Below are positions 6,427-55,697 of a DNA stretch of 58,976 nucleotides, in pieces (position 1 is the first letter of the stretch; each line of letters starts with the position of its first letter). The translations under genes and the position numbers were made by a program. Source of the DNA: Patescibacteria group bacterium. Its GTDB lineage: Bacteria > Patescibacteriota > Microgenomatia > UBA8517. The notes beneath the pieces are model-generated. The model ran no database searches. It was not told the origin of the DNA and worked only from the letters and a program-made list of their open reading frames with translations. The DNA lies in contig JBBTZT010000003.1 of assembly GCA_038061225.1 (NCBI GenBank), positions 1 to 58,976 of the forward strand. Reading direction: 5' to 3'.

Positions 6427-6890
6427 TTACAAAAAGTAAAAAAATAAAGAATGAAGAATTAAATGATATGAAAAATCAATTAGCTCGTGCTTTAGCAGAT
6501 TATGCAAATTTAAAGAAAAGATCCGAAGAAGAAAGAGTAGAAATGTATAAACTAGCAAGTATTTCTTTTATGATTAAAATATTACCTATTATTGACAATC
6601 TAAAACAAGCTCAAAGTCATGTTAATGATTCTGGTATTGCAATAATTGTTGGACAACTTGAAACACTTGCTAAAGAAGAAGGATTTGAAGAGATTAAAAC
6701 AAAAGTAGGAGAAAAGTTTAATGAATCAACTGACGAGGTGATAGAAGCACTTGAAACAAATAAAGAATTAGAAGATAATAATATTTCAGAAGTTGTTATG
6801 TCAGGCTGGAAATATTCTGATGGGACAATTGTCAGACACGCAAGAGTTAAAGTGTATAAGCGAAGCTTGCCACCTACGGTGGTAAATTAA
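6423..6890 (+). CDS. grpE: Nucleotide exchange factor GrpE
   Basis: RALADYANLKKR...GEKFNE...SGWKYSDGTIVRHARVKV; located in the hrcA-dnaK operon. Confidence 0.9.
   Translation: MITKSKKIKNEELNDMKNQLARALADYANLKKRSEEERVEMYKLASISFMIKILPIIDNLKQAQSHVNDSGIAIIVGQLETLAKEEGFEEIKTKVGEKFNESTDEVIEALETNKELEDNNISEVVMSGWKYSDGTIVRHARVKVYKRSLPPTVVN
6856..6882 (+). repeat. Mini-hairpin element ATAAGCGAAGCTTG-CCACC-TAC-GGTGG
   Basis: The first 18 nt match the reverse complement of 30888-30905 exactly. Related cores at 17664, 46735, 48920, 48944 and 55671. Confidence 0.8.
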
Positions 6891-6896
6891 AATAAT

Positions 6897-8810
6897 ATGT
6901 CTAAAATAATTGGAATTGATTTAGGAACAACAAATAGCTGTGTAGCTGTAATGGAAGGTGGAACACCTAAAGTTATCGCCACTTCTGATACTGGTAAAAA
7001 TACAACACCATCAGTTGTTGAACTTGGCAAAAATCTAGTAGGAGATGTTGCAAAACGCCAGATGATTCTAAATCCTACAAACACAATCTCATCAGTTAAA
7101 AGATTAATGGGGAGAAGATTTGAGGACAAAGAAGTAACGAGGACTCAGAAAATGGTTTCTTATAAAATTGTTTCAGGTAAAAGTGGGATGGCTGATGTTG
7201 AAATTGATGGCAAGACTTATACTCCACAAGAAATAAGTGCCAGAGTTTTAATGAAACTTAAAAAAGATGCAGAAAAATATCTTGGAGAAACTGTAGACCG
7301 CGCAGTTATTACAGTTCCTGCGTATTTTGATGATTCTCAACGACAAGCAACAAAACAGGCGGGTGAAATCGCAGGACTTAAAGTAGAAAGAATTATTAAT
7401 GAACCAACCGCAGCTGCTTTAGCATATGGATTGGATAAAAAGAAAAATGAAAAAATAGCAGTCTATGATCTTGGCGGTGGAACTTTTGATATTTCAATTC
7501 TAGAACTTGGAGATGGAGTGTTTGAGGTAAAGTCTACAAATGGTGATACACACCTAGGTGGAGATGATTTTGATGAAAAGATAGTAGATTTTATTGCAGA
7601 GGAATTCAAAAAAGAAAATTCAATGGATCTAAGGCTTGATAAACAAGCCTTACAACGTGTCAGAGATGCTGCGGAAAAAGCAAAAATTGAGCTTACTGCT
7701 ACTGAGGAAGTTGAAATAAATCAACCTTATATCACACAAAAAGATGGTCAACCGCTTCACTTGACAATGAAATTAACAAGAGCAAAGTTAGAATCAATTG
7801 TTGATGATTTAATTGTCAAAACAATTAAACCAGTTGAAGATTGTCTAAAAGATGCAAAACTTAAAACATCTGATATTAATGAAGTTATTTTAGTTGGTGG
7901 AATGACAAGAATGCCAAAGGTTGTTGAAGAAGTTAAAAAATTCTTTGGCAAAGAACCTAATAAATCAGTAAATCCTGATGAAGTTGTGGCAATTGGAGCT
8001 GCTATTCAAGCAGGAGTTTTAGCAGGAGACGTTAAAGATATTCTTCTTTTAGATGTTACTCCGCTAACACTTGCCATTGAAACAATGGGAGGCGTTGCAA
8101 CACCAATGATTCCAAGAAACACTACAGTTCCAACATCAAAAACTGAGGTTTTCTCAACTGCGGCAGATAATCAGACACAAGTTGAAATTCACATAACACA
8201 AGGTGAAAGACCACTTAGTAATGACAATAAAGCGCTAGGAAGATTTGTATTAGATGGTATTCCACCAGCTCCAAGAGGAGTTCCACAAATTGAAGTTATG
8301 TTTGATCTTGATGCGAATGGAATTTTAACAGTTACTGCAAAAGACAAAGCAACAGGAAAAACACAAAATATTAAAATTACAGGTTCTGTGGGATTAACAG
8401 ATGAAGAAGTTAAAAAAGCTCAAGAAGATGCAGAAAAGAATAAAGTAGAAGATGAAAAGAAAGCAGAAACTATAAAAGCCAAAAATACTGCAGATGCAAC
8501 AATTGTGATGGCTGAGAAAGCTATTAAAGATGCTGGAGACAAAGCACCAAAAGAAGTAGTAGAAAAAGTACAAGATAAAATTAAGGCATTAAAAGATATT
8601 TTAGAAACTGGATCAAAAGAAGATTTAGAAAGCAAGACAAAAGAACTTTCAGATACTTTGTCTGAAGTTGGTCAAGCAATGTATGCAAACCAAACACCTC
8701 CACAAGGTGAAGGACAACCAGCAACAGAAGAATCAAAAGAAGATGAATCTAAGAAATCAGACAAAAAAGGTGATTCTAAGATCGAAGAAGGTGAAGTGGT
8801 AAGCGAATAG
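6897..8810 (+). CDS. dnaK: Chaperone DnaK
   Basis: [31 protein letters not shown]. Confidence 0.99.
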
Positions 8811-8845
8811 CTTGCCATGATAAACATGGTAGAATAACTTCTGTA

Positions 8846-9742
8846 ATGACCACAAAAAATGATTTTTATGATATCTTAGGATTAAATAAATCTGCTTCTA
8901 GTGCAGAAATAAAAGCAGCATATAGAAAAAAAGCTTTGGAGTGGCATCCAGATAGACATCAAGGAAGTGACAAAGAAGAAGCTGAAAGAAAATTTAAAGA
9001 AATAAACGAAGCATATCAAATACTTTCTGATCCTTCAAAAAAGAGTGCATATGATAATTATGGCCACGACGCATTTTCTCCTGGTGGCGGAGGGTTTAAG
9101 GGTGGTGGATCCCCCTTCGCACAAGGCTTCGGGGGACAGGCCGGGCCATTTACTTACACTTGGTCTTCAGGTGGTGGGCAACAAAATCCATTTGGAAATA
9201 CTGATTTTGGAGATCCATTTGATATTTTTGAAAGTTTTTTTGGCGGAGGCGGAAATCCCTTTGGAAATCAAAGACAAAGACAAATTCCACGCTATAGCGT
9301 TCACTTAGAATTTATGGAAGCAGTAAATGGTGTTACTAAGGAATTTAATATAGAAGGGGAGAGAAGAAAAATTAAAATTCCAGCAGGTGTTGATGAAGGA
9401 ACAAAAATAAACTTTGGTGATTTTTCATTGTCTGTAAATGTTATTCCTCATGAATTTTTTGAAAGAGATGGGGATGATATTTATATAAATGTCACAATTC
9501 CCTATTCAATGGCAGTTTTAGGAGGAAACATTGAAGTTCCAACAATTGATGATGAAGTTAAAATAAAAGTAAAGGGGGGAACAGGGTCAGGAACAATGAT
9601 TAGACTAAAGGGCAAAGGTGCTCCAAACCCACATCATAAAACAAAAGGTGATCAGTATATAAAACTAAATATTTTAGTTCCAGAAAGAATGAACAGAGAA
9701 CAAAAAAGAATAATTGACGATTTGAAAGAAGAAGGGCTCTAA
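8846..9742 (+). CDS. dnaJ: DnaJ-family co-chaperone lacking the Zn-finger region (class B/CbpA-like)
   Basis: J domain with HPD, G/F-rich linker, C-terminal domain; no CxxCxGxG repeats. Confidence 0.9.
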   Translation: MTTKNDFYDILGLNKSASSAEIKAAYRKKALEWHPDRHQGSDKEEAERKFKEINEAYQILSDPSKKSAYDNYGHDAFSPGGGGFKGGGSPFAQGFGGQAGPFTYTWSSGGGQQNPFGNTDFGDPFDIFESFFGGGGNPFGNQRQRQIPRYSVHLEFMEAVNGVTKEFNIEGERRKIKIPAGVDEGTKINFGDFSLSVNVIPHEFFERDGDDIYINVTIPYSMAVLGGNIEVPTIDDEVKIKVKGGTGSGTMIRLKGKGAPNPHHKTKGDQYIKLNILVPERMNREQKRIIDDLKEEGL

Positions 9743-9786
9743 TTTTCAATTGATTAAATCTCCCTGATGCTGTAAACTTCAAGACT

Positions 9787-10776: not shown

Positions 10777-10823
10777 ATTTGTCATTAAAATGATAATGTT
10801 TAAATTTTTAAAAAATAATATAT

Positions 10824-13105: not shown

Positions 13106-13120
13106 TGATATAATATATCC

Positions 13121-13367: not shown

Positions 13368-13386
13368 TTTATGATAATATAAATAT

Positions 13387-14221: not shown

Positions 14222-14223
14222 CT

Positions 14224-14441: not shown

Positions 14442-14452
14442 TAAATAAATAT

Positions 14453-15112: not shown

Positions 15113-15142
15113 TTCCCCTTTGTAAAACTTACGTCTGCCTGA

Positions 15143-15541: not shown

Positions 15542-17872
15542 ATGAAGAAGATAGTTAAGACATTCAAATTAGGTGGTAAAGAAATTACATTAACCACAGG
15601 AGTATTAGCCGAACAAGCCGATAGCGCTGTTATGGCTAGAATGGGAGATACAGTAGTACTTGCTACTGTTACTTCAGCTCCACTAAAACAAGAAATGGAT
15701 TATTTCCCATTATCAGTTGAATATCAAGAGAAATTATATGCTGGTGGAAGAATAAAAGGTTCAAGATGGGTAAAAAGAGATGGAAGACCGACAGATGAAG
15801 AAATTTTAGTAGGAAGATTAATTGATAGATCCATTAGACCACTTTTTCCAAAACTATACAAAAAAGAGGTTCAAATAATAGTTGCAGTTCTTTCAGTTGA
15901 TGGTGAAAATATGCCATCAATGTTAGGTGCTATTGCCGCTTCTGCTGCAGTTCACATCTCTAACTTACCATGGAAGGGTCCTGTTGGGGTAATTAACATT
16001 GGCCTTAAAGATGAAAAATATATAATTAACCCAACCAATTCAGAGCTTTCTGAATCAGTTTTAGATTTAGTTGTTTCTTCAACTGCAAATGCAGTGGTAA
16101 TGATTGAAACAGGAGCAAAAGAAGTAAGTGAAAAGCAAGTTGTTGATGGAGTTAAAATGGCGTTTGACGAGGCACAGACTATAAACACAGCAATTGAAGA
16201 ATTTGCAAAAGAGTTGAAAGTTAAAAGAGATATCTATGAAGAAGAAAAACCATCTGCAACTTTAGAAAAAGAAGTAGAAAAATTAGTCAGTAAAGATATT
16301 TCAGAGCTTGTTAAAAACATGGCAACTCACGAGGGGTCATCTGATGTTTTTAAAGAAATGGTAACAATAGTTTCTGAGAAATTTGAAAAAGATCAAGACA
16401 AAAAATGGGTAGCAGAAATAATTGATCATCTTAAGAAAGACTATATAAGAGAACAAATACTAACAAAAGGAATAAGACCAGACGGCAGAAAATTAACAGA
16501 AATTAGAAAATTATCTTCAGAAGTAGGCTTTTTACCTAGAACTCATGGATCAGGATTATTTACTCGTGGTCAAACCCAAGTATTATCTATTGCGACACTT
16601 GGTTCCACTCAAATGGGGCAACTCTTAGAAACCGCAGAGGGTGAACAAGAAAAAAGATATATGCATCATTATTCCATGCCACCATTCACAACAGGAGAAG
16701 TTGGACGAGTTGGAAATCCAGGAAGACGTGAAATAGGTCATGGAGCATTAGCTGAAAAGGCCTTAATGCCAGTACTTCCAACTGAAGTGAATTTTCCATA
16801 TGCGATTCGCGTAGTATCTGAAGTTATGAGTTCAAATGGGTCAACTTCAATGGCTTCAGTTTGTGGTTCATCTTTGGCTTTAATGGACGCAGGAGTTCCA
16901 ATAACAGCTCCAGTATCTGGTATTGCAATGGGCTTAATTATTGAAGGCAAGGATGTTGCAATTCTTTCTGACATTATGGGAATTGAAGACTTTAATGGGG
17001 ACATGGATTTTAAGGTTGCAGGAACTGCAAAAGGAATTACAGCAATCCAGCTTGATGTTAAGACATTAAATCTAACACCTGTCATACTTGAAAAAGTATT
17101 AGAGCAGGCAAAAAATGGTCGTGCTGAGATGTTAAAAAGTGTAACAGACGCAATTAGTACTCCAAGAAAAGAAGTTTCAATTTATGCTCCAAAAATAAAA
17201 CTTGTTAAAGTTCCTGTTGATAAAATTGGTGACCTTATAGGTCCCGGTGGAAAAGCTATTAAAAAGTTAATGGCGGATACTGGAACACATATTGACGTTG
17301 AAGACGATGGAAGCGTTTCAATTTCAGGAATTGAAAAAGCAGGAATTGAAAAAGCCATTGAATATGTAGAAGGTCTTGGTAAAGAAGTAACTGCTGGCGA
17401 AATTTATGAAGGTGAAGTTGTTCGTATCATGCCATTTGGAGCTTTTGTAAATATCTTACCTGGAAAAGATGGGATGGTTCACGTTTCAGATATGGCAGAA
17501 GGGTATGTAGCGGACGCCAATGATATTGTAACCATCGGACAAAAAGTTACCGTTCGCGTTAAAGAAGTAGATGAAATGGGAAGAGTAAATCTCTCTATGA
17601 GAATGGATCCATCAACTGACAAGCCAAAAGAAGCCCACTCCGGTGGACCTTCGCGGGGCAGGGATAAGCAAAGCTTGGTCGGTTACACCGGTAGAAATTC
17701 AGGCGGTTACAATAGAAATAACAACAGATCAGATTCACGAGGTGGTGGATTTTCAGATAGAGGACGATCTTCCTTTGGAGGAAATAGGGATAGAAATTCA
17801 GCTCCAAGATCATCAGGTCCACACTTTCCAACTTCTAGATATTTCCAAACCGGAACAAATGTAGATAGATAA
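15542..17872 (+). CDS. pnp: Polyribonucleotide nucleotidyltransferase with an R/G/S/N-rich tail
   Basis: Two RNase PH domains (RTHGSGLFTRGQTQ, SNGSTSMAS, DMDFKVAG), KH and S1. Confidence 0.98.
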   Translation: MKKIVKTFKLGGKEITLTTGVLAEQADSAVMARMGDTVVLATVTSAPLKQEMDYFPLSVEYQEKLYAGGRIKGSRWVKRDGRPTDEEILVGRLIDRSIRPLFPKLYKKEVQIIVAVLSVDGENMPSMLGAIAASAAVHISNLPWKGPVGVINIGLKDEKYIINPTNSELSESVLDLVVSSTANAVVMIETGAKEVSEKQVVDGVKMAFDEAQTINTAIEEFAKELKVKRDIYEEEKPSATLEKEVEKLVSKDISELVKNMATHEGSSDVFKEMVTIVSEKFEKDQDKKWVAEIIDHLKKDYIREQILTKGIRPDGRKLTEIRKLSSEVGFLPRTHGSGLFTRGQTQVLSIATLGSTQMGQLLETAEGEQEKRYMHHYSMPPFTTGEVGRVGNPGRREIGHGALAEKALMPVLPTEVNFPYAIRVVSEVMSSNGSTSMASVCGSSLALMDAGVPITAPVSGIAMGLIIEGKDVAILSDIMGIEDFNGDMDFKVAGTAKGITAIQLDVKTLNLTPVILEKVLEQAKNGRAEMLKSVTDAISTPRKEVSIYAPKIKLVKVPVDKIGDLIGPGGKAIKKLMADTGTHIDVEDDGSVSISGIEKAGIEKAIEYVEGLGKEVTAGEIYEGEVVRIMPFGAFVNILPGKDGMVHVSDMAEGYVADANDIVTIGQKVTVRVKEVDEMGRVNLSMRMDPSTDKPKEAHSGGPSRGRDKQSLVGYTGRNSGGYNRNNNRSDSRGGGFSDRGRSSFGGNRDRNSAPRSSGPHFPTSRYFQTGTNVDR

Positions 17873-17901
17873 GTATTTTTAACACATGATATAATTTTTA
17901 T

Positions 17902-18951
17902 ATGTCAGATACTGCCTTTGAGGAGATAAACATTTTAAGTGATAAAGTTAATAAGTCTACTATTCCTGAAGATTTAAAAAAATCTGTTCTTGTCCGCTTA
18001 TCTCAACTCCAAAAGCTTACTAATTCACCTACTTTTTTGCCGGAATATGACAGAATGGATAGTTATATCGGATGGATTACAAATTTGCCGTGGTCACAAA
18101 AATCTGAGGATAACTTAGATTTAGTAAACGCCAAAAAGATATTAGATGAAAAACATTTCGGCTTAGATGATATTAAAGATCGAATTTTAGAATATCTTTC
18201 TGTTATGAAGCTTAAAAAAGAAAAAGGCGAGGCGGATGATATATATCGTGCCCCAATTCTATGTTTTGTGGGACTTGTTGGCACAGGAAAAACAACAATT
18301 GCTTATTCAATTGCAGAGGCACTGGGAAGAAAAATTGCTCGTATACCATTTGGAGGAATGGGAGATCCTTTAGATCTTCGTGGCCAAAGTAAAATGCATC
18401 CAGAAGCAGAACCAGGGAAAATTATTAAAGCCATGAGAGATACACAGTTTAAAAATTCTGTAATACTTCTTGACGAAATTGATAGAGTGACTGATTTAGG
18501 CCGAGCTTCCATTATGGGTGTTTTGGTTGAACTTTTAGATCCTGGACAAAACCATGCATTTAGTGATCATTATATAGATTATCCATTTGATCTTTCAGAA
18601 TGTATTTTTATAGCAACAGCAAATAACACAACAAATATATCAACGGCAGTAATGGATAGAATAGAACCTATTATGATGCCTTCTTATACCGATCTTGAAA
18701 AAATAACCATTGGAAAGAGATATGTTTTCCCTAAAGCTTTAAAAGACGCAGGACTTACTCCAGAGGTTTTACAAATTGATGATGAAGTTTGGGCAAACTT
18801 AGTTAGACCATTTGGTTATGATGCAGGTATTCGTACAATGGAAAGGACAATAGGAGGAGTAGTTCGTAAAGTTGCAAGGGCAATAGTTGAGGGAAAAGGA
18901 ACTTCATTCCATGTAACTACAACAAATGTAAAAGAATTCCTTCCTTTATAG
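17902..18951 (+). CDS. Lon-type AAA+ ATPase module without the N-domain or protease domain
   Basis: LDEKHFGLDDIKDRILEYL, Walker A GLVGTGKTT, Walker B LLDEID, LLDPGQN..F.DHY. The protein stops where the Lon protease domain would begin. Confidence 0.85.
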   Translation: MSDTAFEEINILSDKVNKSTIPEDLKKSVLVRLSQLQKLTNSPTFLPEYDRMDSYIGWITNLPWSQKSEDNLDLVNAKKILDEKHFGLDDIKDRILEYLSVMKLKKEKGEADDIYRAPILCFVGLVGTGKTTIAYSIAEALGRKIARIPFGGMGDPLDLRGQSKMHPEAEPGKIIKAMRDTQFKNSVILLDEIDRVTDLGRASIMGVLVELLDPGQNHAFSDHYIDYPFDLSECIFIATANNTTNISTAVMDRIEPIMMPSYTDLEKITIGKRYVFPKALKDAGLTPEVLQIDDEVWANLVRPFGYDAGIRTMERTIGGVVRKVARAIVEGKGTSFHVTTTNVKEFLPL

Positions 18952-19996: not shown

Positions 19997-20093
19997 ACTT
20001 GAAGCCTTACACAAACTTAAGGACAAAATGGAAAAGGAGAATTCTCTTTCTTGCGGTTTACAAAACAAAAACCGAAATGATAGAATTAATTAA
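19989..20093 (+). pseudogene. Probable 5' remnant of the original udg gene (34 aa ORF)
   Basis: MIKLEALHKLKDKMEKENSL aligns loosely with the UDG N-terminus MDKKQELLQIKLDMEADKYL. The start overlaps the HAD gene stop, and the stop forms TAATG with the LAGLIDADG start. Confidence 0.45.
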
Positions 20094-20974
20094 TGAAGGT
20101 CCAAAGTTTTACTCGAAATAGATTAAAGTATTCAGTAAATGAGAAATTTTTTAACAAATGGAGTTCGCAGATGGCATATATTTTAGGGTTTACCTATTCA
20201 GATGGAAATATTTACAAATCTACACTTGCTTGGGATATACAAAAAAGGGATAGAGAATTACTTGTAAAAATTAGAAGAGCAATGAATAGTAACCATCCTA
20301 TTAAAGAGAGGTCTCATTCAGTTAGATTAAGAATAAGCAATTTGAAGTTGATTAGTGGTGCAATTAAACGAGGTTTAATGGAAAAGAAGTCTAAAAGAAT
20401 GATCTTACCGTCTATTCCAACTAAATTTATATCACATTTTATGAGAGGTTTTTTGGATGGTGACGGTTGGGTTGTTTTAAGAAATGGTAGAAATGAAGCC
20501 GATATAGGGTTTGTTAGCGGTAATCAGAAGTTTTTAGAAAATGTCTCGTTAAGAATATTTGAAGAAACAGGAATTAAAGGTCATGTAAGGGCAAAATTTA
20601 AAATTACTCCCAATGGTTTTAGATCTACGACATATCTTATGGAATATTTTTCTAATAACGCTGTGAGGGTAGGTAATTGGATATATAGCCATCTTTCACA
20701 AAAGGATTTAAAATTAAGAAGAAAATATATGAAATATTTAAAAGCTGTGAAGTTATACGATTACATAAATTCAGGAAGTAGGGGTGTGAGAGTTGTTCAG
20801 AAAAAGATGAAAGATACAATGAGAAACATACTGCATAAATTTTATGTTGAGAATCATCTTAATGCAGTTCAGATTGCAAATATTCTAAAGGTTCACTCAT
20901 CGTCAATATATCGCTGGTTGGAAAAAACAGGGACAAGACATCCAATACATAGAAAGGAATTTATTAGTGGATAA
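20093..20974 (+). mobile_element. Free-standing double-motif LAGLIDADG homing endonuclease with a C-terminal HTH
   Basis: Motifs AYILGFTYSDG and HFMRGFLDGDG; C-terminal NAVQIANILKVHSSSIYRWL HTH. Candidate promoter TTTACA(20057)-18-TAGAAT(20081). Confidence 0.85.
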
Positions 20975-26273: not shown

Positions 26274-26295
26274 ATATTTTTGATATACTTCATTC

Positions 26296-28011
26296 ATGGT
26301 TACTTCAAACGAAGTCCGAGAAAAGTATTTAAAGTTTTTTGAGAAAAGAGGACACACTATTATTCCTCCTGCACCTCTTGTTTTAGAAAATGATGCAACA
26401 ACACTTTTTACATCAAGTGGAATGCAACCTTTGGCCCCATATTTAATGGGACAAAAACATGAATTGGGTACAAGACTTGTTGATTCACAACCTGCAATTA
26501 GGACGATAGATATTGACGAAGTGGGTGATAATAGACACTTAACTTATTTTGAAATGTTGGGTAATTGGAGTTTAGGAGATTATTTTAAAGATGAACAACT
26601 TCCATGGATTTGGGAATTTTTAACTGAAGAATTAAAACTTCCAAAAAATAAATTATATGTTTCTATATTCGAGGGTAATGATTTTGTACCTGAAGATGTG
26701 GAGAGTTTTAATATCTGGAAAAAATTGGGTGTACCCAAAGATCATATTTTTGAGTATGGTGTAAATAAAAATTGGTGGAGTAGAAGCGGAACGCCAGATG
26801 AAATGCCTGTTGGCGAAATTGGTGGTCCTGACTCCGAGATATTCTACGAATTTGAAAATGTAAAACACGACAAAACTTTTGGGGAAAAGTGTCACCCTAA
26901 TTGCGATTGCGGAAGGTTTTTGGAAATTGGAAACTCAGTTTTTATCCAATACAAAAAGAATGAAAAAGGTGAACTTGAGGAATTACCACAAAAAAATGTT
27001 GATTTTGGTGGAGGATTGGAAAGAATAACAGCAGCATTAAATAATGATCCTGACATATTTAAAACTGATATCTTTCTGCCGATTATAGAAAAATTAGAAA
27101 AAGTAACTGGTAAAAAATATGAACAAGAAAAGAAAAATTTTAGAATAATTGCCGACCATCTAAGGGCTTCAGAAGCTTTAATTAATGCTGGTGTTGTTCC
27201 TTCAAATAAAATGCATGGATATATTTTAAGAAGATTAATTAGAAGAATTGCAACAAAAACTAATAACTTAGAACTTATAACTAATAATAAAATAATACTT
27301 GATGAAGTTTCTAAGTTTAAATTAAGTTTAGAGAATGGCATTAAAGAGATTAAAAAAATACTCGAGCGTTCCGAGGACAAAATTACAGGCAAAATTGCCT
27401 TTGATTTATATCAATCATATGGTTTTCCACTAGAGCTTACTGTTGAGTTGTTTAAAGACAAAGGTCAAAAGGTAAACCTTGATGATTTTAAGAAAGAATT
27501 TGAAAAACATAAAGAGGTTTCAAGGTCTACTTCCAAAGGTATGTTTAGGGGAGGTTTAGAAGACCATGGTGAGGAAACTACAAAACTTCATACCGCCACA
27601 CATTTATTACATACTGCATTACGAAAAGTTTTAGGAGATACTGTTAGCCAAAAAGGAAGCCATATAACTGCAGACAGACTTCGATTTGATTTTTCATATC
27701 CTGAAAAACTGACAGAAGATCAAATAACAAAAGTTTTTGATTTGATTAGTAAGAAGATTGACGAAGATTTACCAGTTACTTTTATAGAAACAACACCTGA
27801 AGAAGCAATTAAAATGGGCGCGCTCCATTTCTTTGCAGAGAAGTATGGAGAGAAGGTAAAAATGTATTCTATTGGTGATTTTAGCCGTGAGATTTGTGGT
27901 GGACCACACGTCACTAGCACAAAACTTGTTGGAGATGTTAGAATGATTAAGCAAGAGAAAATTGGTAGTGGAATAATAAGAATATATGTTGGACTTTCTG
28001 TCAAAACCTAA
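26296..28011 (+). CDS. alaS: Alanyl-tRNA synthetase, compact form (no C-Ala domain)
   Basis: LFTSSGMQP, RHLTYFEMLGNWSLGDYFK, DFGGGLER, editing motifs HTATHLLH and CGGPH. Confidence 0.97.
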   Translation: MVTSNEVREKYLKFFEKRGHTIIPPAPLVLENDATTLFTSSGMQPLAPYLMGQKHELGTRLVDSQPAIRTIDIDEVGDNRHLTYFEMLGNWSLGDYFKDEQLPWIWEFLTEELKLPKNKLYVSIFEGNDFVPEDVESFNIWKKLGVPKDHIFEYGVNKNWWSRSGTPDEMPVGEIGGPDSEIFYEFENVKHDKTFGEKCHPNCDCGRFLEIGNSVFIQYKKNEKGELEELPQKNVDFGGGLERITAALNNDPDIFKTDIFLPIIEKLEKVTGKKYEQEKKNFRIIADHLRASEALINAGVVPSNKMHGYILRRLIRRIATKTNNLELITNNKIILDEVSKFKLSLENGIKEIKKILERSEDKITGKIAFDLYQSYGFPLELTVELFKDKGQKVNLDDFKKEFEKHKEVSRSTSKGMFRGGLEDHGEETTKLHTATHLLHTALRKVLGDTVSQKGSHITADRLRFDFSYPEKLTEDQITKVFDLISKKIDEDLPVTFIETTPEEAIKMGALHFFAEKYGEKVKMYSIGDFSREICGGPHVTSTKLVGDVRMIKQEKIGSGIIRIYVGLSVKT

Positions 28012-30649: not shown

Positions 30650-31060
30650 ATGAATATATTAGGTATAGATTACGGAAGAAAAAAAATAGGACTTGCCATA
30701 TCGAATGGAAAATTAGCAGAGCCAATGAAAGTGATTAGATATACAGATATAAAGAAATTAAGTGAACAAATAAGACAAATAATAAAACAAGAAAAAATTG
30801 AAAAAGTTATAGTCGGAGTTTCTGAAGGGGAAATGGCAATTGAATCAAAAAAATTTGCAACACTAATCACCAGTTACCAACCACAAAGTGGCAAGCTTCG
30901 CTTATCACCAGTCACTGTTGAGTTTTCTGATGAAACTTTAAGTTCTTATGACGCAGTTGATATGTCAATTCAAGCAGGAATGAGTAGAAAAAAAAGAAAA
31001 GAGATGGAAGATGCATTTGCAGCATCCATTATGCTACAATCATATATAGATCATGTTTAA
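30650..31060 (+). CDS. yqgF: YqgF/RuvX pre-16S rRNA nuclease
   Basis: ILGIDYGRKKIGLAIS, IVGV, DETLSS, DAFAASIMLQSY. Confidence 0.93.
   Translation: MNILGIDYGRKKIGLAISNGKLAEPMKVIRYTDIKKLSEQIRQIIKQEKIEKVIVGVSEGEMAIESKKFATLITSYQPQSGKLRLSPVTVEFSDETLSSYDAVDMSIQAGMSRKKRKEMEDAFAASIMLQSYIDHV
30881..30905 (-). repeat. Mini-hairpin element ATAAGCGAAGCTTG-CCAC-TTT-GTGG, in frame inside yqgF
   Basis: Reverse complement of ccacaaagtggcaagcttcgcttat; encodes PQSGKLRLS. Confidence 0.8.
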
Positions 31061-31250
31061 AAATGTAATAGCACCAATTCAAGCTTGGCTTATGTCACAG
31101 GGTAAATGTGTTGGTTGTGGCACACCTCTAGACACGGCTAAAAAGAAAGAACATAAGTATGGAGAAATGGTAACTTGTAAATGTGGCAGAATTTATATCA
31201 GAAATTCAAAAACAAAAAGCTACAGAAGAGCACTTCTAAATGAAATCTAA
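31053..31250 (+). CDS. Small Zn-ribbon protein
   Basis: CVGC...CKCGRIY; overlaps both neighbours. Confidence 0.75.
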   Translation: MFKNVIAPIQAWLMSQGKCVGCGTPLDTAKKKEHKYGEMVTCKCGRIYIRNSKTKSYRRALLNEI

Positions 31251-42451: not shown

Positions 42452-42481
42452 TTGACACTTTTTAGTAGTCTCGGTTATAAT
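42452..42481 (+). promoter_or_regulatory. Internal tuf promoter (leaderless geometry)
   Basis: TTGACA(42452)-18-TATAAT(42476), with the ATG 7 nt later. Confidence 0.8.
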
Positions 42482-42488
42482 ACACACT

Positions 42489-43691
42489 ATGGCAGCTGAC
42501 GCAAAAGTAAAATTTGATAGAACAAAACCACATTTAAATATTGGTACTATTGGTCATGTTGATCATGGAAAGACCACATTAACTGCAGCTATCACTACAG
42601 TTCTTGCAAAAAATTTTCCAGGTGGAGTAAATAAAGCTTACGCATTTGATCAAATTGATTCAGCTCCAGAAGAAAAACAAAGAGGAGTGACAATTAATAT
42701 CAGCCACGTTGAATATGAAACGGACAAAAGACATTATGCCCATATAGACGCTCCGGGACACGCAGACTACATTAAAAACATGATTACTGGTGCTGCACAA
42801 ATGGATGGAGCAATTTTAGTTGTCTCAGCTCCAGATGGTCCTATGCCTCAAACAAGAGAACACGTAATATTGGCAAGACAAGTTAATGTCCCATCTTTAA
42901 TTGTTGCTTTAAACAAGTGTGATGCAATGGATGACCCAGAACTTCTAGAACTTGTTGAAGCAGACATTAGAGAGTTATTAACTAAATACCAATTTCCAGG
43001 AGAAACAACTCCTATCGTTAGAGTTTCTGCACTTAAAGCGCTTGAAGGTGATGCAGAAGCAGAAAAAGGAATATTAAAGTTAATGGAAACAGCTGATTCG
43101 TATATTCCAGATCCAGTAAGAGATGTTGAAAAACCATTTTTAATGCCTGTTGAGGATGTTTTCTCAATCTCAGGAAGAGGCACTGTTGTCACAGGCCGCG
43201 TCGAACGCGGTGAAATTAAGGTTAATGAAGAAATTGAAATTGTAGGTATTAAAACTACAATGAAATCAGTTGTTACTGGTCTTGAAATGTTTAGAAAATT
43301 ATTAGATTCTGCAATGGCAGGTGACAATGTTGGAGTATTACTTCGAGGAGTTGACAAAAATCAAGTAGAAAGAGGACAGGTCTTAGCAAAATCAGGAACA
43401 GTTACTCCACATACTGAATTTGAAGCTGAAGTTTATATCTTAAGCAAAGACGAAGGTGGAAGACATACGCCATTCTTTACAGGCTACAAGCCACAATTCT
43501 TTATTAGAACAGCAGATATTACAGGAGATGTAAAACTTGCAGATGGGGTTGAAATGGTTATGCCAGGAGACAATGCAAAAATGACAGTAAAATTAATTGC
43601 TCCTATTGCAATGGAAGATGGATTAAGATTTGCAATTCGTGAAGGTGGCCACACAGTAGGCGCTGGGGTCATTACAAAAGTATTAAAATAA
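42489..43691 (+). CDS. tuf: Elongation factor Tu
   Basis: [38 protein letters not shown]. Confidence 0.99.
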
Positions 43692-46456: not shown

Positions 46457-46738
46457 ATGTCAAGAAGCTCTAAAAAAGGACCATATGTAGATGAAAGACT
46501 TTTAAAAAAGTTAGAAAAGGGCATGGGTCAAAAAGAGAATCCAATAAAAACATGGTCAAGAGCATGCCAAATTCCACCAGAATTTGTCAACAAATACTTT
46601 ACCGTTCATAACGGCAAAGTATTTATAGATGTTTTTGTTAGTGAAGATATGGTTGGACATACTTTAGGAGAATTTTCACCAACAAGAACATTTAAAGGAC
46701 ATGGAGAAGTTGTCAAACGTACGATGGACAAAACATAA
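46457..46738 (+). CDS. rpsS: 30S ribosomal protein uS19
   Basis: [21 protein letters not shown]. Confidence 0.99.
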
Positions 46739-46759
46739 GCAAAGCTTGTATATATCAAA

Positions 46760-48917: not shown

Positions 48918-48969
48918 ATATAAGCGGAGCTTGTAATATAAATATAAGCGGAGCTTGTAATATAAATAT
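48916..48969 (+). repeat. 24-bp tandem duplication carrying the ATAAGC-GGA-GCTTG mini-hairpin
   Basis: aaatataagcggagcttgtaatat x2 plus a partial third unit, between rplN and rplX. Confidence 0.9.
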
Positions 48970-48970
48970 T

Positions 48971-49815: not shown

Positions 49816-49817
49816 AT

Positions 49818-50003: not shown

Positions 50004-50004
50004 G

Positions 50005-50382
50005 ATGACAAACTATCATATAGCAGATTTTTTAATACGACTTAAGAATGCTTCCATGGCAAATATTAAGGAGTTAACCATGCCTACAACTAATTTAATT
50101 AACGCTGTGGCAAAAACATTAAAAGATGAGAAATTTTTAAATGAAGTAACTATTAAAGATAAAAAAATAACAGTACAACTTGCAATTTATATGAAAAAAC
50201 CAGTTCTTTCAAACGTAACTATAATTTCAAGACCAGGTCTAAGAATCTATATGAATGCAGACCAAATTGAAGCAATCAAAACACCTGAAGTTTATATTAT
50301 AAATACGAATTCAGGAGTTATGTCTGGAAAACAAGCAATTAAAAAACGACTAGGTGGAGAGGTAATAGCAAAGGTAATTTAA
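50005..50382 (+). CDS. rpsH: 30S ribosomal protein uS8
   Basis: IADFLIRLKNA, ISRPGLRIY, GGEV. Confidence 0.98.
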   Translation: MTNYHIADFLIRLKNASMANIKELTMPTTNLINAVAKTLKDEKFLNEVTIKDKKITVQLAIYMKKPVLSNVTIISRPGLRIYMNADQIEAIKTPEVYIINTNSGVMSGKQAIKKRLGGEVIAKVI

Positions 50383-50383
50383 C

Positions 50384-50932
50384 ATGAGTAAGGTAGGACA
50401 ACAACCAATAGAAATACCATCAGGAGTAACTGTTGAAATAAACGGTAGTCTTGTCAGTGTTTCTGGTCCAAAGGGTAAATTAGAAACAAGTTTTAAGAAA
50501 GATTTAATTGATATTAAGGTTGATGAAAATAAAATACTAGTTACTCCTAAAAAGAAAAGTAAAATAGCAAGATCAATTTGGGGTACAACTAGAATGTTGA
50601 TTGCAAATAACGTTAAAGGTGTAACAGAAGGTTGGAAAAAACAACTTGAATTAGTAGGAACTGGATATAGATCAGAAGTAGCTGGAAATACTTTGGTTCT
50701 GGCAATAGGATATTCCCATCCTGTTAAGGTTGAAGCTCCAGAGGGAATTACCTTTAAAGTAGAAAAAAGTGTTATAAATGTAGAAGGAATTGACAAACAA
50801 GTAGTTGGACAAGTCTCAGCTGACATAAGAAGTTGCCGACCACCAGAACCATATAAAGGAAAAGGTGTTAAATATGTTGGTGAGGTAATTAGAAGAAAGG
50901 CAGGAAAGGCGGCAAAAACAGCAACTGCATAA
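50384..50932 (+). CDS. rplF: 50S ribosomal protein uL6
   Basis: [22 protein letters not shown]. Confidence 0.99.
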
Positions 50933-50942
50933 ACAAACAATT

Positions 50943-51215
50943 ATGAAAAGAAAAATTATAGGTACAACTGATAGACCAAGGCTTAGTGTCTTTAGATCAA
51001 ATAAGATGCTTTATGCTCAAATTATTAATGATGAAAAGGGAATAACTTTAGTGTCTGAAAAAGGTAAAGGTGGTAAAGAAGTGGGGCTTAAAATTGCCCA
51101 AAAAGCGGTTAAAAAGAAAGTTAAAAAGATAGTTTTTGATAAAAGTGGTTATGCGTATCACGGTAAAATAAAAGCTATTGCTGAAGGAGCTAGAGAAGGA
51201 GGTTTAGATTTTTAA
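50943..51215 (+). CDS. rplR: 50S ribosomal protein uL18 (short)
   Basis: [33 protein letters not shown]. Confidence 0.97.
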
Positions 51216-51700
51216 TGGATTATCAACGACCAGAAAAAGAATTTAACGAGACAGTAGTTCAAATCAATAGGATTTCAAAGAAAACTAAGGGTGGAAATCA
51301 AGTAAGATTTGGGGCTGTAGTTGTATTGGGAGATAGAAAAGGAAAAGTAGGAGTTGGTAATTCTAAGGCAACTGATGTCAGAAATGCTATAAGAAAAGCA
51401 ATTGAGGATGCCAAGAAAAAAATGATAACAATTACAATGAGAGGTACAACAATTCCCTATTCGGTAATCGTCAAATTGGGGGCATCAAAAGTAATGCTCA
51501 AACCAGCTCCTCCCGGATCGGGTGTTATTGCAGGAGGTCCTATGAGAATTGTACTTGAGTCAGCTGGAGTTAGAGATGTTGTTGGTAAAACAATGGGAAG
51601 TAATAACAAAATATCAAATGTCAGGGCTACTATTTTAGCACTAGAAAAAACATCAGAGTTGTTAGAAAAGAAAGATTTCATGAAAGGAAAAAACAAATAA
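51215..51700 (+). CDS. rpsE: 30S ribosomal protein uS5
   Basis: RISKKTKGG, PAPPGSGVIAGG. Confidence 0.98.
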   Translation: MDYQRPEKEFNETVVQINRISKKTKGGNQVRFGAVVVLGDRKGKVGVGNSKATDVRNAIRKAIEDAKKKMITITMRGTTIPYSVIVKLGASKVMLKPAPPGSGVIAGGPMRIVLESAGVRDVVGKTMGSNNKISNVRATILALEKTSELLEKKDFMKGKNK

Positions 51701-51918
51701 TGGCAAAAAGATTAGGTCGAGGATATGGCAGTGGCAAAGGTGGACATACATCTGGAAGGGGTCAAAAAGGACAAAAATCGAGAACAAATATCCACATACT
51801 GTTTGAAGGTTTGAAAGTTAAAAAATCTACACTTAAAAAGTTTCCACTCTTAAGAGGAAAGGGTAAATTTCTAGCCAAACCTAAAGCAAAAGAAAGATAT
51901 ATTAGTAAGAATGCCTAA
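51700..51918 (+). CDS. rplO: 50S ribosomal protein uL15, truncated (72 aa)
   Basis: KRLGRGYGSGKGGHTSGRGQKGQKSR...FEG. The C-terminal globular domain is absent and secY starts inside the 3' end. Confidence 0.9.
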   Translation: MAKRLGRGYGSGKGGHTSGRGQKGQKSRTNIHILFEGLKVKKSTLKKFPLLRGKGKFLAKPKAKERYISKNA

Positions 51919-53191: not shown

Positions 53192-53757
53192 ATATAGTGC
53201 TTTTTGGTCCACAAGGTTCAGGTAAAGGAACACAAGCCCTTCTTTTATGTCAAAAATATGGACTTTTTTATTTTGAGTCGGGTGCATATTTAAGAAAGGT
53301 TGCAGAAACAAACCCTGATTTAAAAAAATCTCTTGATCTAGGTAATCTTGTTCCAGATAAAGAGATGACATCTTATTTGACAGCTTTCTTTGATGAAAAA
53401 AATTTATACGATGATATATTATTTGATGGGTTTCCAAGAACTATAGAACAGTATTATTTTTTTAAAAAATGGTTAGTTGGAAAACAAGTTAAATTAGATT
53501 TGGGAATTGTTTTAGAAATAAGTGAAGAAGAAACGATAAAAAGACTTTTACTTAGAAAAAGAGATGATGATACTCCAGAAGCAATCAAAAAAAGACTTCT
53601 ACTTTATAGGAACAGGACGGAAGTATTAATTAATGAAATCAAAAAAGATACGAAGGTGATTGAAGTTAACGGTGAAAGATCGATACAAGCTATTCAAAAA
53701 GATCTAATCTCTATCATCGAAGATGTAAAAATTGTAGAAGGTATTAAAAATGGATAA
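53188..53757 (+). CDS. adk: Adenylate kinase (short LID)
   Basis: GPQGSGKGTQ, DGFPR, R.DD. Confidence 0.95.
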   Translation: MNIVLFGPQGSGKGTQALLLCQKYGLFYFESGAYLRKVAETNPDLKKSLDLGNLVPDKEMTSYLTAFFDEKNLYDDILFDGFPRTIEQYYFFKKWLVGKQVKLDLGIVLEISEEETIKRLLLRKRDDDTPEAIKKRLLLYRNRTEVLINEIKKDTKVIEVNGERSIQAIQKDLISIIEDVKIVEGIKNG

Positions 53758-54508
53758 TTTTTCACTTAAGACTCCAGAAGAATTGGAATTAATGATAGAA
53801 GGAGGTAAAAAACTTTCTGAAATCAAACATATTTTAGTTAAAGAAGTTAAAGAGGGTGTTTCTGCTTTAGATTTAGACATTTTAGCTGAAAAGTTAATTT
53901 TAGAAAAAGGAGGTAAACCTTCCTTTAAGATGGTAGATGGTTACTCATGGTCAACCTGTATTAATGTTAACCAAGGTGTAGTACATGGTATCCCTCACAG
54001 AGAAGTTATTTTTAAAAATGGAGATTTAATAAGTATCGATTTGGGAATGTATTATAAGGGGTTTCATACTGATACTTCAGTAAGTACAGCAATTAATCCA
54101 AGTAAAGAAGTAACTAGGTTTTTGAAAATTGGTAAAGATGCTTTTGAAAAAGCAGTTTCTGCAATTATAGCCAACAAAAGTTATATTTATGATATTTCTA
54201 AAGAAATGGAATCAGTACTGTATAAGAATAATTACTCACCCATTTTAGATTTAACGGGTCATGGGATAGGTAAAAATTTACATGAAAATCCACATATACC
54301 CTGTTATACATCGGGACTTAGAGTTGAAACTGAAAAAATAGTCCCTGGTATGGCATTGGCTGTTGAAGTTATGTACGCATTAGGAAAACCAGATTTAGCT
54401 AAAGAAAAAGATGGCTGGACAATCGTAACTCAGGATGGTAAAATAGCAGGGCTTTTTGAAGATACTATTATAGTTACTGAGAAAGGCAGGAAGATAGTCA
54501 CACAGTGA
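53750..54508 (+). CDS. map: Methionine aminopeptidase type I
   Basis: VVHGIP, SIDLG, HTDT, GHGIG..LHE.P, E..FEDT. Confidence 0.97.
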   Translation: MDNFSLKTPEELELMIEGGKKLSEIKHILVKEVKEGVSALDLDILAEKLILEKGGKPSFKMVDGYSWSTCINVNQGVVHGIPHREVIFKNGDLISIDLGMYYKGFHTDTSVSTAINPSKEVTRFLKIGKDAFEKAVSAIIANKSYIYDISKEMESVLYKNNYSPILDLTGHGIGKNLHENPHIPCYTSGLRVETEKIVPGMALAVEVMYALGKPDLAKEKDGWTIVTQDGKIAGLFEDTIIVTEKGRKIVTQ

Positions 54509-54517
54509 CTTTTTTGT

Positions 54518-54751
54518 ATGAATAAGCTTGAAAAGATAAAAAGAGATGGAAGTTATGAAGTTGAAGGTACTGTCACTGAACTTTTACCAAATACAATGTT
54601 TAGAGTGGTGACATCTGATGGGAAAAGCCTACTTACAACCTTAAAAGGTAAGATGCGTAAAGCATATGTCAGAGTTTTTCCTGGAGATAAAGTAAGGGTT
54701 GAAATGACAAAATACGATGAAGATAGGGGAAGGATAGTATATAAATACTAA
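54518..54751 (+). CDS. infA: Translation initiation factor IF-1
   Basis: EGTVTELLPNTMFRV, GDKVRVE. Confidence 0.98.
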   Translation: MNKLEKIKRDGSYEVEGTVTELLPNTMFRVVTSDGKSLLTTLKGKMRKAYVRVFPGDKVRVEMTKYDEDRGRIVYKY

Positions 54752-54771
54752 ATTTAAAATAAATTAGATAT

Positions 54772-54885
54772 ATGAAAGTATTAGCATCAGTAAAACCAAG
54801 ATGTAAAGATTGTAAACTTATTAAAAGAGCAGGAGTGTTGCGTTTGATTTGTAAAAATCCAAGACACAAAGCAAGACAAGGTTAA
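54772..54885 (+). CDS. rpmJ: 50S ribosomal protein bL36 (missed by the ORF track)
   Basis: Manual translation [37 protein letters not shown]. Confidence 0.98.
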
Positions 54886-54890
54886 TATAT

Positions 54891-55292
54891 ATGGCAAGAA
54901 TATCAGGTATTGAATTAAATGATAAATTTAGAGTTGATTATGCTTTAACACAAATCAAAGGCATAGGTTGGACGATGTCTGAAAAAATTATAAAATTTTT
55001 AAAATTGGATCCTTCCAGAAGGATCAAAGACTTGACTGCTGAGGAAATAAATAAAATATCAAACAAAATTGAAGAATTTCCAACAGAGGGAGATTTAGTA
55101 AGAAGAGTTAAGGCAAATATAAACAGACTACAAACAATTGGATCATATAGAGGGATAAGACACAATAAAGGATTACCAACAAGAGGTCAAAGAACAAAAA
55201 CTAATGCTAGAACAAAAAGAGGAAAAAGAAAAACTGTTGGAGCATTCAAAAAAGAAGCTTTAGCAAAAGCAACAGTCGCAGGTAGAAAATAA
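54891..55292 (+). CDS. rpsM: 30S ribosomal protein uS13
   Basis: MARISG, SYRGIRH..GLPTRGQRTKTNART. Confidence 0.99.
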   Translation: MARISGIELNDKFRVDYALTQIKGIGWTMSEKIIKFLKLDPSRRIKDLTAEEINKISNKIEEFPTEGDLVRRVKANINRLQTIGSYRGIRHNKGLPTRGQRTKTNARTKRGKRKTVGAFKKEALAKATVAGRK

Positions 55293-55296
55293 ATAC

Positions 55297-55674
55297 ATGT
55301 CAGTAAAAAAAACTAAACAAAATAAAAATGAAGGACTGGCAAAAATCTATATTTCTGCATCTTTTAATAATACATTAGTAAATATTTGTGATAGTTTAGG
55401 TGGAACTATATCTTGGTGTTCATCAGGCGCATCTGGTTTTAAAGGTACTAGAAAATCAACTCCTTATGCAGCAACAACAGCAATTGAAACCGCAATAAAA
55501 AAGGCTAAAGAAAAAGGAGTAAATGAAGTTGAAATTTATGTTAAAGGTCCAGGGCCAGGAAGAGATGCGGCACTTCGTGCAATTAAAACATCGGGAGTTA
55601 AAATTGCATTAATTGCAGATGTAACACCAATTCCACACAACGGACCAAGACCAAAAAAGAAAAGGAGAGTATAA
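55297..55674 (+). CDS. rpsK: 30S ribosomal protein uS11
   Basis: ASFNNT, GFKGTRKSTPYAA, DVTPIPHNG. Confidence 0.99.
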   Translation: MSVKKTKQNKNEGLAKIYISASFNNTLVNICDSLGGTISWCSSGASGFKGTRKSTPYAATTAIETAIKKAKEKGVNEVEIYVKGPGPGRDAALRAIKTSGVKIALIADVTPIPHNGPRPKKKRRV

Positions 55675-55697
55675 GCAAAGCTTGTATAAATCTAAAG

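Follow-up and report, generated by a model that had tools for sequence, protein, structure and literature searches.

Short dispersed DNA hairpins are known from several systems. The REP sequences, with their inverted REPIN doublets and REP-associated tyrosine transposases (RAYTs), are hairpins of 20-40 nt without coding capacity that fall into lineage-specific families, carry a conserved head (GTAG) 5' of the stem, and mostly lie just after stop codons. The cyanobacterial elements SDR1-8 (Nostoc and others), which Elhai and colleagues reportedly described in 2008 (Genome Res 18:1484, a reference listed in PMC3116915), measure 21-27 nt, occur in one cyanobacterial subgroup, and are said to be sited in heptamer repeats, HIP1, or minitransposons. 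Rickettsia palindromic elements (RPEs) are palindromic selfish DNA lying in frame in essential protein genes of a reduced genome (PMC10969869), and the mitochondrial double-hairpin elements of Allomyces are very short mobile elements for which PMC2800124, citing Paquin et al. (2000), reports no flanking duplication. Here, we describe a unit of comparable kind in a 58,976-nucleotide stretch from a Patescibacteria group bacterium (contig JBBTZT010000003.1; hereafter, the window). A hairpin motif that recurs at stop codons and inside proteins of this stretch is probably the head of a family of very small non-autonomous DNA insertion elements in Woesebacteria and related Microgenomates.

The motif is far more frequent in the window than expected by chance. 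AAGCNNAGCTT has 8 matches where 0.71 are expected, ATAAGCNNAGCTTG (a 14-mer, up to one mismatch) has 8 against 0.36, and the GC-stem version TAA-GC-N2-4-GC-TTG has 9 against 0.14. The general pattern TAAGC-N-GCTTG, with loops of 2-6 nt, matches 10 times against 0.2 (300 shuffles, maximum 2), or roughly 50-fold above chance. The original prediction, made from the letters of the window, had proposed a genome-wide count against expectation and listed seven copies, all with exact coordinates (6856, 17664, 30892-30905 on the minus strand, 46735, 48920, 48944, and 55671); it was also correct that 18 nt, ATAAGCGAAGCTTGCCAC, are common to 6856(+) and 30888-30905(-) in opposite orientation. Two further copies were absent from its list, one with loop GAAA at 2321-2345(-) and one with loop GAATA at 8800-8831. 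One of the ten matches, at 31080-31093(-) with loop CAA, was rejected as a coding coincidence. The match falls in a conserved 65-aa zinc-ribbon open reading frame (ORF), where it is read as IQAWLMS, and comparison with L091 and L092 (L numbers denote loci of relatives, P numbers proteins) reveals no indel, the motif being eroded by point changes and the peptide kept. The window total is nine real copies at eight sites, and since the 10 kb upstream and 6.7 kb downstream in the same genome hold no additional copy, nine in ~76 kb of the source genome. These copies, in a one-hairpin or a two-hairpin form, and the rejected match are:

2321..2345, minus strand: one-hairpin copy at the pilN/pilO junction, TAAGC-GAAA-GCTTG-TATAAATC-TAA
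6857..6884, plus strand: two-hairpin copy at the grpE/dnaK junction, TA-AGC-GAA-GCTTG-CCACC-TAC-GGTGG-TA
8800..8831, plus strand: two-hairpin copy at the dnaK/dnaJ junction, TA-AGC-GAATA-GCTTG-CCATG-ATAAA-CATGG-TA
17665..17693, plus strand: two-hairpin copy in the RG-rich C-terminal tail of PNPase, TA-AGC-AAA-GCTTG-GT-CGGT-TAC-ACCG-G-TA
30881..30904, minus strand: two-hairpin copy, antisense inside ruvX (yqgF), TAAGC-GAA-GCTTG-CCAC-TTT-GTGG
46736..46756, plus strand: one-hairpin copy at the rpsS/rplV junction, TAAGC-AAA-GCTTG-TATATATC
48921..48968, plus strand: two tandem 24-nt units at the rplN/rplX junction, (TAAGC-GGA-GCTTG-TAATA-TAAATA) x2
55672..55695, plus strand: one-hairpin copy at the rpsK/rpsD junction, TAAGC-AAA-GCTTG-TATAAATC-TAA
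31080..31093, minus strand: rejected match, part of a 65-aa CxxC...CxC ORF whose conserved coding sequence reads IQAWLMS here

Comparison with close relatives reveals that these copies come and go as blocks. In the ribosomal cluster, the window and L011 can be aligned over the full length (88.9% identity), and six of the indels of at least 4 nt are the element:

rpsS/rplV: filled in the window relative to L011, 17 nt
rplN/rplX: filled in the window relative to L011, 41 nt, two tandem units
rpsK/rpsD: filled in the window relative to L011, 22 nt
rplW/rplB: filled in L011 relative to the window, 24 nt, two-hairpin form
rplP/rpmC: filled in L011 relative to the window, exactly 21 nt
rpmJ/rpsM: filled in L011 relative to the window, 20 nt

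The rplP/rpmC sequence is GAAATAAATG in the window and GAAATAA-GCAAAGCTTGTAAAAATCTAA-ATG in L011. For the remaining sites, the sister is represented by L164, which is 83-88% identical and likely belongs to the species group of L011. Here, the window is filled and L164 empty at pilN/pilO (23 nt), grpE/dnaK, and dnaK/dnaJ (30 nt), and a 28-nt insertion is present in L164 and missing from the window's genome at one junction outside the window. In total, six sites are occupied only in the window and four only in the sister, with none shared. The comparison of filled and empty sites was the test that the original prediction had set for itself, and it withstood this test, with clean indels at all 10 sites. 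Judged by these alignments, the element is inserted or lost as a block at TA/TAA, with complete site turnover between species at 83-89% DNA identity. Ten near-identical Hainich groundwater contigs carry the same copies throughout (no strain-level polymorphism among them), and DNA sequencing runs contain only variants of sister-species level.

In other genera (~70-78% identity), copies occupy still different junctions:

L016: rplD/rplW
L014: rplX/rplE
L018: rpsN/rpsH and rpsE/next gene
L022: rplB/rpsS, rpsC/rplP, infA/rpmJ, and rpsM/rpsK, plus a two-hairpin copy downstream of rpsD

Several copies each are found in L106 and L114, and copies also occur in L015 and L017. Nesting is seen in L106 (rpsM/rpsK) and L141, where a two-hairpin copy abuts a one-hairpin copy. 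Loci from other phyla or from other classes of the candidate phyla radiation (CPR) gave no credible copy. A metagenome scan for the one-hairpin pattern returned 67 loci, ~14 of them genuine, all low-GC and laid out as stop-element-(TAA)-ATG, the remainder being chance matches or an unrelated conserved gene; in viral contigs, the one-hairpin pattern gave chance matches only and the two-hairpin pattern none. Copies at unrelated places can be near-identical. The copies at 2321-2345(-) and 55672-55695 agree at 31 of 33 positions, the two differences being a base of the loop and a base ahead of the ATG, and those at L164:986(-) and L016:3848, from different genera and non-homologous junctions, have TAAGCGAAGCTTGAAATTAAAATTATGAAAA in common. 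Three copies in L022 carry a tail of their own, GATTCRGACAAAAR. Near-identical stretches of 27-33 nt at unrelated places point to copy-and-paste rather than convergence.

When the copies are aligned together with flanking sequence, the 14-mer proves to be merely the head of a longer unit of ~18-28 nt, and the insertions mostly measure 20-30 nt. Both forms share the head TA-AGC-RNA-GCTTG, in which TA-AGC-RNA-GCT-TG folds as a 4-6-bp hairpin with a loop of 3-5 nt. In the one-hairpin form it is followed by an A/T-rich 8-nt tail, which reads TAWAAATC in the window's genus and mostly precedes TAA; in the two-hairpin form it is followed by a second hairpin of 3-5 bp and then TA. The head is conserved in 38 exact-core copies from at least 20 loci, with loops mostly of the type R-N-A (AAA 13, GAA 8, GAAA 4, GGA 3, AGA 2, and ATA 2). 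The second stems are variable in sequence but complementary (CCACC/GGTGG, CCAC/GTGG, CCATG/CATGG, CGGT/ACCG, CTGC/GCAG, CCATC/GATGG, CTTC/GAAG, TGGC/GCCA, and CCGAT/ATCGG), and hairpin 1 has the compensatory variants AAGT/ACTT (L022 and L106) and AAAC/GTTT (L015, L114, and L158). In an alignment of 16 copies, 89.7% of cells pair versus 75.8% after shuffling, and changes on both sides affect 15 cells versus 3.1; neither value was reached in any of 500 shuffles, although the two-hairpin copies were picked out by eye, which gives these covariation figures an ascertainment bias. As a control, sliding the partner by 1-3 columns reduced pairing to 14-44%. All pairing in the stems is of the Watson-Crick type; G-T is absent from the ~96 paired cells. 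The aligned copies demonstrate that both predicted hairpins keep pairing through compensatory changes, in families with lineage-specific tails. The idea that hairpin 2 is a palindromic copy of flanking DNA was rejected for pnp and ruvX, whose flanks lack similarity to it.

Nearest-neighbor folding yields modest stabilities, from -1.7 to -5.8 kcal/mol as DNA and from -5 to -10 kcal/mol as RNA. The d(GC-GNA-GC) mini-hairpin is extra stable, with a Tm of about 76 °C, and it is not reported for loops that begin with A (PMC13037366). The initial suggestion that the motif forms this mini-hairpin holds for copies with G-first loops (GAA, GGA, and GAAA) and fails for the AAA-loop copies at 17664, 46735, and 55671. 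Similarly, of the CCAC..GTGG hairpins placed near three copies, those at 6870-6882 and 30881-30891(-) are part of the element, and the one upstream of 17664 was rejected, being conserved coding sequence (HSGG) that is also present in a relative without the element. The real second hairpin of the 17664 copy is CGGT-TAC-ACCG, on the 3' side.

The ends of the element point to a defined target. Most filled sites have TA or TAA on each side, and empty sites have it once. At pnp, the empty site reads GGGA-TA-GAA and the filled one GGGA-TA-AGCAAAGCTTGGTCGGTTACACCGG-TA-GAA; at dnaK/dnaJ, they read GTAG-TA-CAATAAC and GTGG-TA-(28 nt)-TA-GAATAAC. The TA...TA arrangement also fits rplP/rpmC, rplW/rplB, and grpE/dnaK and, within one base in an A run, rpmJ/rpsM, rpsK/rpsD, and pilN/pilO. 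The right-hand flank at ruvX is TT, not TA. Directly after hairpin 2, TA is found in 15 of 18 two-hairpin copies, at a chance rate of about 0.1. Such flanks are the same whether they stem from a target duplication (2-3 nt) or from an element-borne terminal TA placed beside TA. In 17 of the 38 exact-core copies, the element's TAA is the upstream stop codon, and the following ATG is mostly 0-27 nt away. However, the target TA in grpE lies in an out-of-frame TTTAAA within coding sequence and is not a stop codon, so that TA/TAA would be recognized as DNA. Why copies are associated with stop codons is best accounted for by survival: apart from the stop codon, hardly any TAA in these compact operons is non-coding. 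Every junction copy is on the G-rich, gene-sense strand, and the directions of replication and transcription coincide here. Around a candidate origin near 3.2 kb, the GC skew is flat or mixed upstream, and the strands are not separable for the pilN/pilO copy.

Four of the eight window sites (grpE, dnaK, pnp, and ruvX) lie partly or wholly in coding sequence, where copies add 2-11 residues; most copies overall are at junctions. Read in frame, the grpE copy makes GrpE end in YKRSLPPTVVN, a tail shared with one 80%-identical protein (P0129), where relatives end in FKFVKK or similar; the L164 gene, GTGTTTAAATT..., is without the element and ends ...VFKFVKK. At dnaK/dnaJ, the loop of hairpin 1 holds the TAG stop of dnaK and the last DnaK residues lie inside the copy, which has a near-identical counterpart in L165 (a genome at 75% identity). 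Compared with L166 (P0241), pnp has exactly 27 nt more, placed between GGGA and TAGAA, and PNPase gains nine residues, KQSLVGYTG. In ruvX, an exact 24-nt insertion relative to L091 is read on the plus strand as PQSGKLRL, adding eight residues; RuvX has 136 aa here and 121-131 aa in most homologs, and the closest one (71% identity) is without the insert. At the corresponding position of L092, there is a diverged antisense copy with a CGA loop and a different second stem, CTTC/GAAG, so the ruvX site would be a hot spot, unless the insertion is old and has been lost in other genomes. An in-frame copy in the rplC tail of L017 is read as DKQSLPSDGK. The donation of peptide sequence that had been suggested for the motif is thus borne out in RuvX, PNPase, the GrpE tail, and the last residues and stop of DnaK.

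At pilN/pilO, the first TAA of the copy is the pilN stop and the pilO ATG begins 2 nt past the element; the 23-nt insertion has no counterpart in either L164 or L165 and hence is a derived gain. The TAA of the rpsS/rplV copy is the rpsS stop, with the rplV ATG 3 nt past the element. This copy is absent from L011, L106, L013, L014, and L088 and decayed in L016 and L015. At rplN/rplX, L011 and relatives read TAAATATATATAAAAATG, a 41-nt difference, and L106 has a single variant copy. The rpsK/rpsD copy opens with the TAA that terminates rpsK, and the ATG of rpsD follows 2 nt past the element; this junction holds a two-hairpin version in L106 and decayed copies in L015 and L016. As mapped across these genomes, surviving copies lie in sense at stop codons and junctions or in frame in tolerant protein segments.

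The presence/absence pattern and the enrichment support the notion, already put forward in the original prediction, of a very short non-autonomous mobile element in essential operons. Such an element would move as DNA, mobilized in trans. Most likely, its folded single strand would be recognized by a trans-acting HUH/Y1 enzyme (RAYT- or IS200-type) and placed beside TA on the lagging-strand template, and purifying selection would then clear away all copies but those in the few nucleotides that separate genes or in permissive loops. The host may in addition make use of the mRNA hairpin, but the data can be explained without this. We prefer the Y1/HUH mechanism because the unit consists of little beyond one or two hairpins and a fixed short flank, because the stems are strictly Watson-Crick, because the junction copies all share the G-rich, gene-sense strand, and because apparently precise losses occur. 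The G-rich, gene-sense strand is the lagging-strand template, where Y1/HUH enzymes act.

A REP-associated tyrosine transposase, which the original prediction had proposed to look for, was not found linked to the element. RAYT-like Y1 genes do occur in element-bearing relatives, at L158:10841-11380, L171:9922-10596, and L171:16563-17255, with one more in L172. They match Pfam Y1_Tnp at 1e-11 and contain the motifs NHIHLL and RYIHKNP, and their best NCBIfam model is REP-associated tyrosine transposase (REP_Tyr_transpos), with a score of 45.7 bits that falls short of its cut-off of 80. The palindromes that accompany them are ATTGCAAGGT-CTC-ACCTTGCAAT and ACCTTTAAGGGT-GTA-ACC(C)TTTAAAGGT, the latter also given as ACCTTTAAGGGT-GTA-ACCCTTAAAGGT. 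The palindrome-flanked RAYT-like units are:

L171:9886-10634
L171:16528-17259
L158:10806-11380
L172:3244-3918

A third palindrome copy lies in frame inside the RAYT-like gene, at the same position in both paralogs (TLQGETLQY and VTFKGVTFKG). This enzyme class is available in the clade, as a mere candidate for moving the element.

Several observations weigh against a DNA element mobilized in this way, in addition to the ascertainment bias of the covariation figures. No transposase was found in the window or in the ~100 kb of Pfam-annotated context of the window genome and its relatives, and the RAYT-like genes are flanked on both sides, and interrupted in frame, by their own 23-27-nt palindromes and not by the element. 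The element has no terminal inverted repeats, its ends being AGC... and ...ATC or ...GTGG, and its copies are singlets instead of REPIN doublets, the sole pair (48921-48968) being a direct tandem. Several junctions are filled in distant genomes and empty in near ones; therefore, precise loss or hot spots are needed. Finally, all ~35 junction copies are sense, which an RNA-level function predicts too.

Indeed, the unit could be a host-selected intercistronic RNA cassette, composed of a stop codon, a 6-8-bp stem, and an A/U-rich spacer before the next ATG. It may protect against 3' exonucleases, provide a processing site, or insulate the next start, with insertion as its mere origin. We consider this unlikely, although it accounts for the sense orientation at junctions, the frequent use of the element's TAA as a stop codon with the next ATG mostly 0-27 nt on, the compensatory variants that preserve the stem, and the near-identity of the element across genera only ~75% identical in coding DNA. 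As RNA, the one-hairpin stem grows to 7-8 bp with its flanks, at -5 to -6.6 kcal/mol (z down to -2.4). One metatranscriptome contig spans 46647-46835 unbroken, which places the copy at 46735 in polycistronic RNA unless it derives from contaminating DNA; the sole metatranscriptome with the source organism has a depth of about 2, too thin for RNA ends. However, no junction is consistently occupied and the sisters share none of the 10 sites, which fits poorly with a needed function, and neither the antisense ruvX copies nor the in-frame pnp and L017 rplC copies would have such a role. The distance to the ATG also ranges from 0 to 27 nt, the lack of any G-U pair in ~96 paired cells is unusual for a selected RNA helix, and there is no Rfam match. 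In the window, an Rfam scan returned nothing at the gathering score, and a tRNA/tmRNA scan found none.

It is improbable that the same element spreads via an RNA intermediate, through transcription, reverse transcription, and integration. Spread via RNA intermediates has reportedly been proposed for the SDR elements by Elhai and colleagues in 2008. Among the published analogs, the Allomyces elements are likewise proposed to use RNA (PMC2800124), and the strict sense orientation at junctions, the very small size, and the lack of terminal inverted repeats would agree with such a route. However, the TA...TA flanks look like the trace of a target that was duplicated or matched in DNA, a plus-strand gene (ruvX) contains two antisense copies, the stems are Watson-Crick only, and no reverse transcriptase was seen in any annotated context.

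It is highly improbable that there is no element and that the motif recurs by point mutation or codon usage as a protein-binding, uptake, restriction-type (AAGCTT), or promoter site: one of the ten window matches, 31080(-), is a coding coincidence, AAGCTT lies inside many copies, and TATAAA-like tails stand 5-7 nt before some ATGs in a genome with leaderless-type promoters, but relatives differ by 20-30-nt block indels rather than substitutions, and AAGCTT is lost in the GGA, AGA, ATA, and CGA loops. Three specific functions were tried and rejected. AAGCTT is neither conserved nor enriched (~28 sites versus ~20 expected), which speaks against a HindIII site or restriction avoidance; a mobile promoter of leaderless mRNAs is at odds with tail-to-ATG distances of 0-9 nt and a promoter scan that is silent at the copies; and an intrinsic terminator is incompatible with the lack of a T-run after any copy and a terminator scan that flags none. 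A GGAG that could mimic a Shine-Dalgarno sequence occurs only in the GGA-loop copies.

The DNA insertion element that we favor can now be set beside the described systems. Like REP sequences, it is a short dispersed hairpin with a conserved head 5' of the stem, located mostly just after stops, noncoding, and divided into lineage-specific families in a clade that holds RAYT-like Y1 genes. Unlike them, its copies are singlets or direct tandems rather than inverted doublets, many lie in frame inside genes, the head is TA-AGC... and not GTAG, the second stem is highly variable between copies, and the RAYT-like genes are flanked by other palindromes. RPEs also insert in frame and add peptide, but they are ~100-150 bp long and contribute 30-50 residues, compared with 20-30 nt and 2-11 residues for the present element, which is about five-fold smaller, mostly intergenic, and unrelated in taxon and sequence. 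The earlier description as REP/RPE-like is consequently apt as an analogy, whereas REPIN doublets and the size of RPEs are not found. The cyanobacterial SDRs share the size, a predicted hairpin with compensatory changes, presence/absence mobility, and nested copies, but they are of unrelated sequence and phylum, and the element differs by its position at stop codons and by TA...TA flanks that suggest DNA. It is, by this likeness, an analog of the SDRs and not a member.

Further parallels are found among organellar and MITE-like DNA. The Allomyces double-hairpin elements and the GC clusters of yeast mitochondria are likewise very short two-hairpin mobile elements of A+T-rich compact genomes, polymorphic between close species and occasionally inside genes, but they are organellar, without TA flanks, and without sequence relation to the element. 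Correia-type MITEs and IS200/IS605-derived palindrome-associated elements (PATEs) resemble it in seeming to target TA, which borders both ends, in the subterminal hairpins of the two-hairpin form, and in an orientation bias that fits insertion into the lagging-strand template. In contrast to MITEs and PATEs, it has no terminal inverted repeats, is 5-10 times shorter than any described, and has no cognate IS identified; MITEs are defined by inverted repeats matching an IS and a length of ~50-500 bp, and the element measures 18-28 nt. Single-strand (peel-and-paste) elements of the IS200/IS605 type have subterminal hairpins, insert beside a fixed short target that is not duplicated, show a strand bias that follows replication, and use a Y1 TnpA; the present element has hairpins and a TA target consistent with this, its junction copies share a strand on which replication and transcription run together, and no TnpA is linked to it. 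Full-text literature searches found no description of an element of this kind in CPR/Patescibacteria.

Other insertions were noted in the same comparisons. In L018, rplW/rplB and rpsQ/rplN (~75 nt each) hold the same longer intergenic repeat, ...GCATCTCACGGGATCCCGTTAGATGCTCTGAAAGAGCTATCTAACTGGGA..., a separate dispersed family. In L165:10001-10498 (GrpE of the L014 genome; also P0139), a G+C-rich 24-nt in-frame insertion, about GACCCGCCTAGACTCGGCGAGGCT, adds PPRLGEAG; it is absent from the window and L164 and may represent another mini-insertion family. L003:5036-5070, from a near-identical Hainich strain, has ~32 extra bases, ATTTATGAGTAAAATAAATAAAATTTTCTTACT, relative to window 50382-50384 (rpsH/rplF), including a duplicated rplF start; this strain-level indel is without the AAGC element. 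An apparent extra 100 nt between rpsH and rplF in L001 was rejected as a run of N in a scaffold gap. At rpsC/rplP, rplE/rpsN, and rpsK/rpsD, 60-130 nt of A/T-rich filler built from the short motifs aataaatac and ttggtaattattgg occur in L014, L015, L088, L114, and L018; this filler is absent from the window.

By exact-protein matches, the window derives from an ultra-small bacterium of Hainich groundwater (0.1-µm filter fraction metagenomes), and its nearest reference genomes are Candidatus Woesebacteria and other Microgenomates (CPR/Patescibacteria). Its content is housekeeping, comprising pilN/O, murJ, hrcA-grpE-dnaK-dnaJ, nusA-infB, rpsO-pnp, RNase J, ftsK, alaS, ruvX, rpoBC, and the S10-spc-alpha ribosomal cluster. 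A Phd/YefM-like antitoxin and PIN-domain toxin pair lies between murJ and hrcA (4955-5646); the same interval of the sister species (L164) is without it, so this cassette is polymorphic. A perfect TTGACA-18-TATAAT promoter (42452-42491) ends 7 nt before the tuf ATG. Since TGnTATAAT-like boxes stand 6-7 nt before the ATG of several genes without a Shine-Dalgarno sequence (including 17880-17904, 20072-20095, and 26275-26298), leaderless mRNAs are suggested to be common in the source organism. Between rpsE and secY (51700-51918), a 72-aa ORF that starts MAKRLGRGYG and has no Pfam match may be a much shortened L15, its N terminus being like that of ribosomal protein uL15. A terminator-like AGTCAC-ACA-GTGACT followed by TTTTTTG, between map and infA in the ribosomal cluster (54496-54517), is conserved in L011 and L012.

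The element is among the smallest insertion elements seen in bacteria, and it is unusual in its size, its niche at TA/TAA stop codons, the complete difference in occupied sites between sister species, and its occurrence, within a streamlined genome, in those operons that are most conserved. More tentatively, and short of even confidence, it could be the smallest actively transposing bacterial DNA: hairpin units of 18-28 nt that home to the TA of TAA, turn over completely between congeners, and routinely rewrite the C termini and loops of essential proteins (DnaK, GrpE, PNPase, RuvX, and ribosomal proteins), moved perhaps by RAYT-like transposases that carry a palindrome of their own. CPR/Patescibacteria genomes are regarded as minimal and largely repeat-free. 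A fast-moving element in their core operons would mean that selfish DNA persists there and shapes gene ends. At its copies, gene callers misplace stops and starts and report odd C-terminal tails, as in GrpE, DnaK, PNPase, and RuvX, and because occupancy differs fully between close species, the sites can serve as strain and species markers for groundwater metagenomes. With its short length and sharp ends, the element leaves every base testable and offers a tractable system for the recognition and movement of hairpin DNA.

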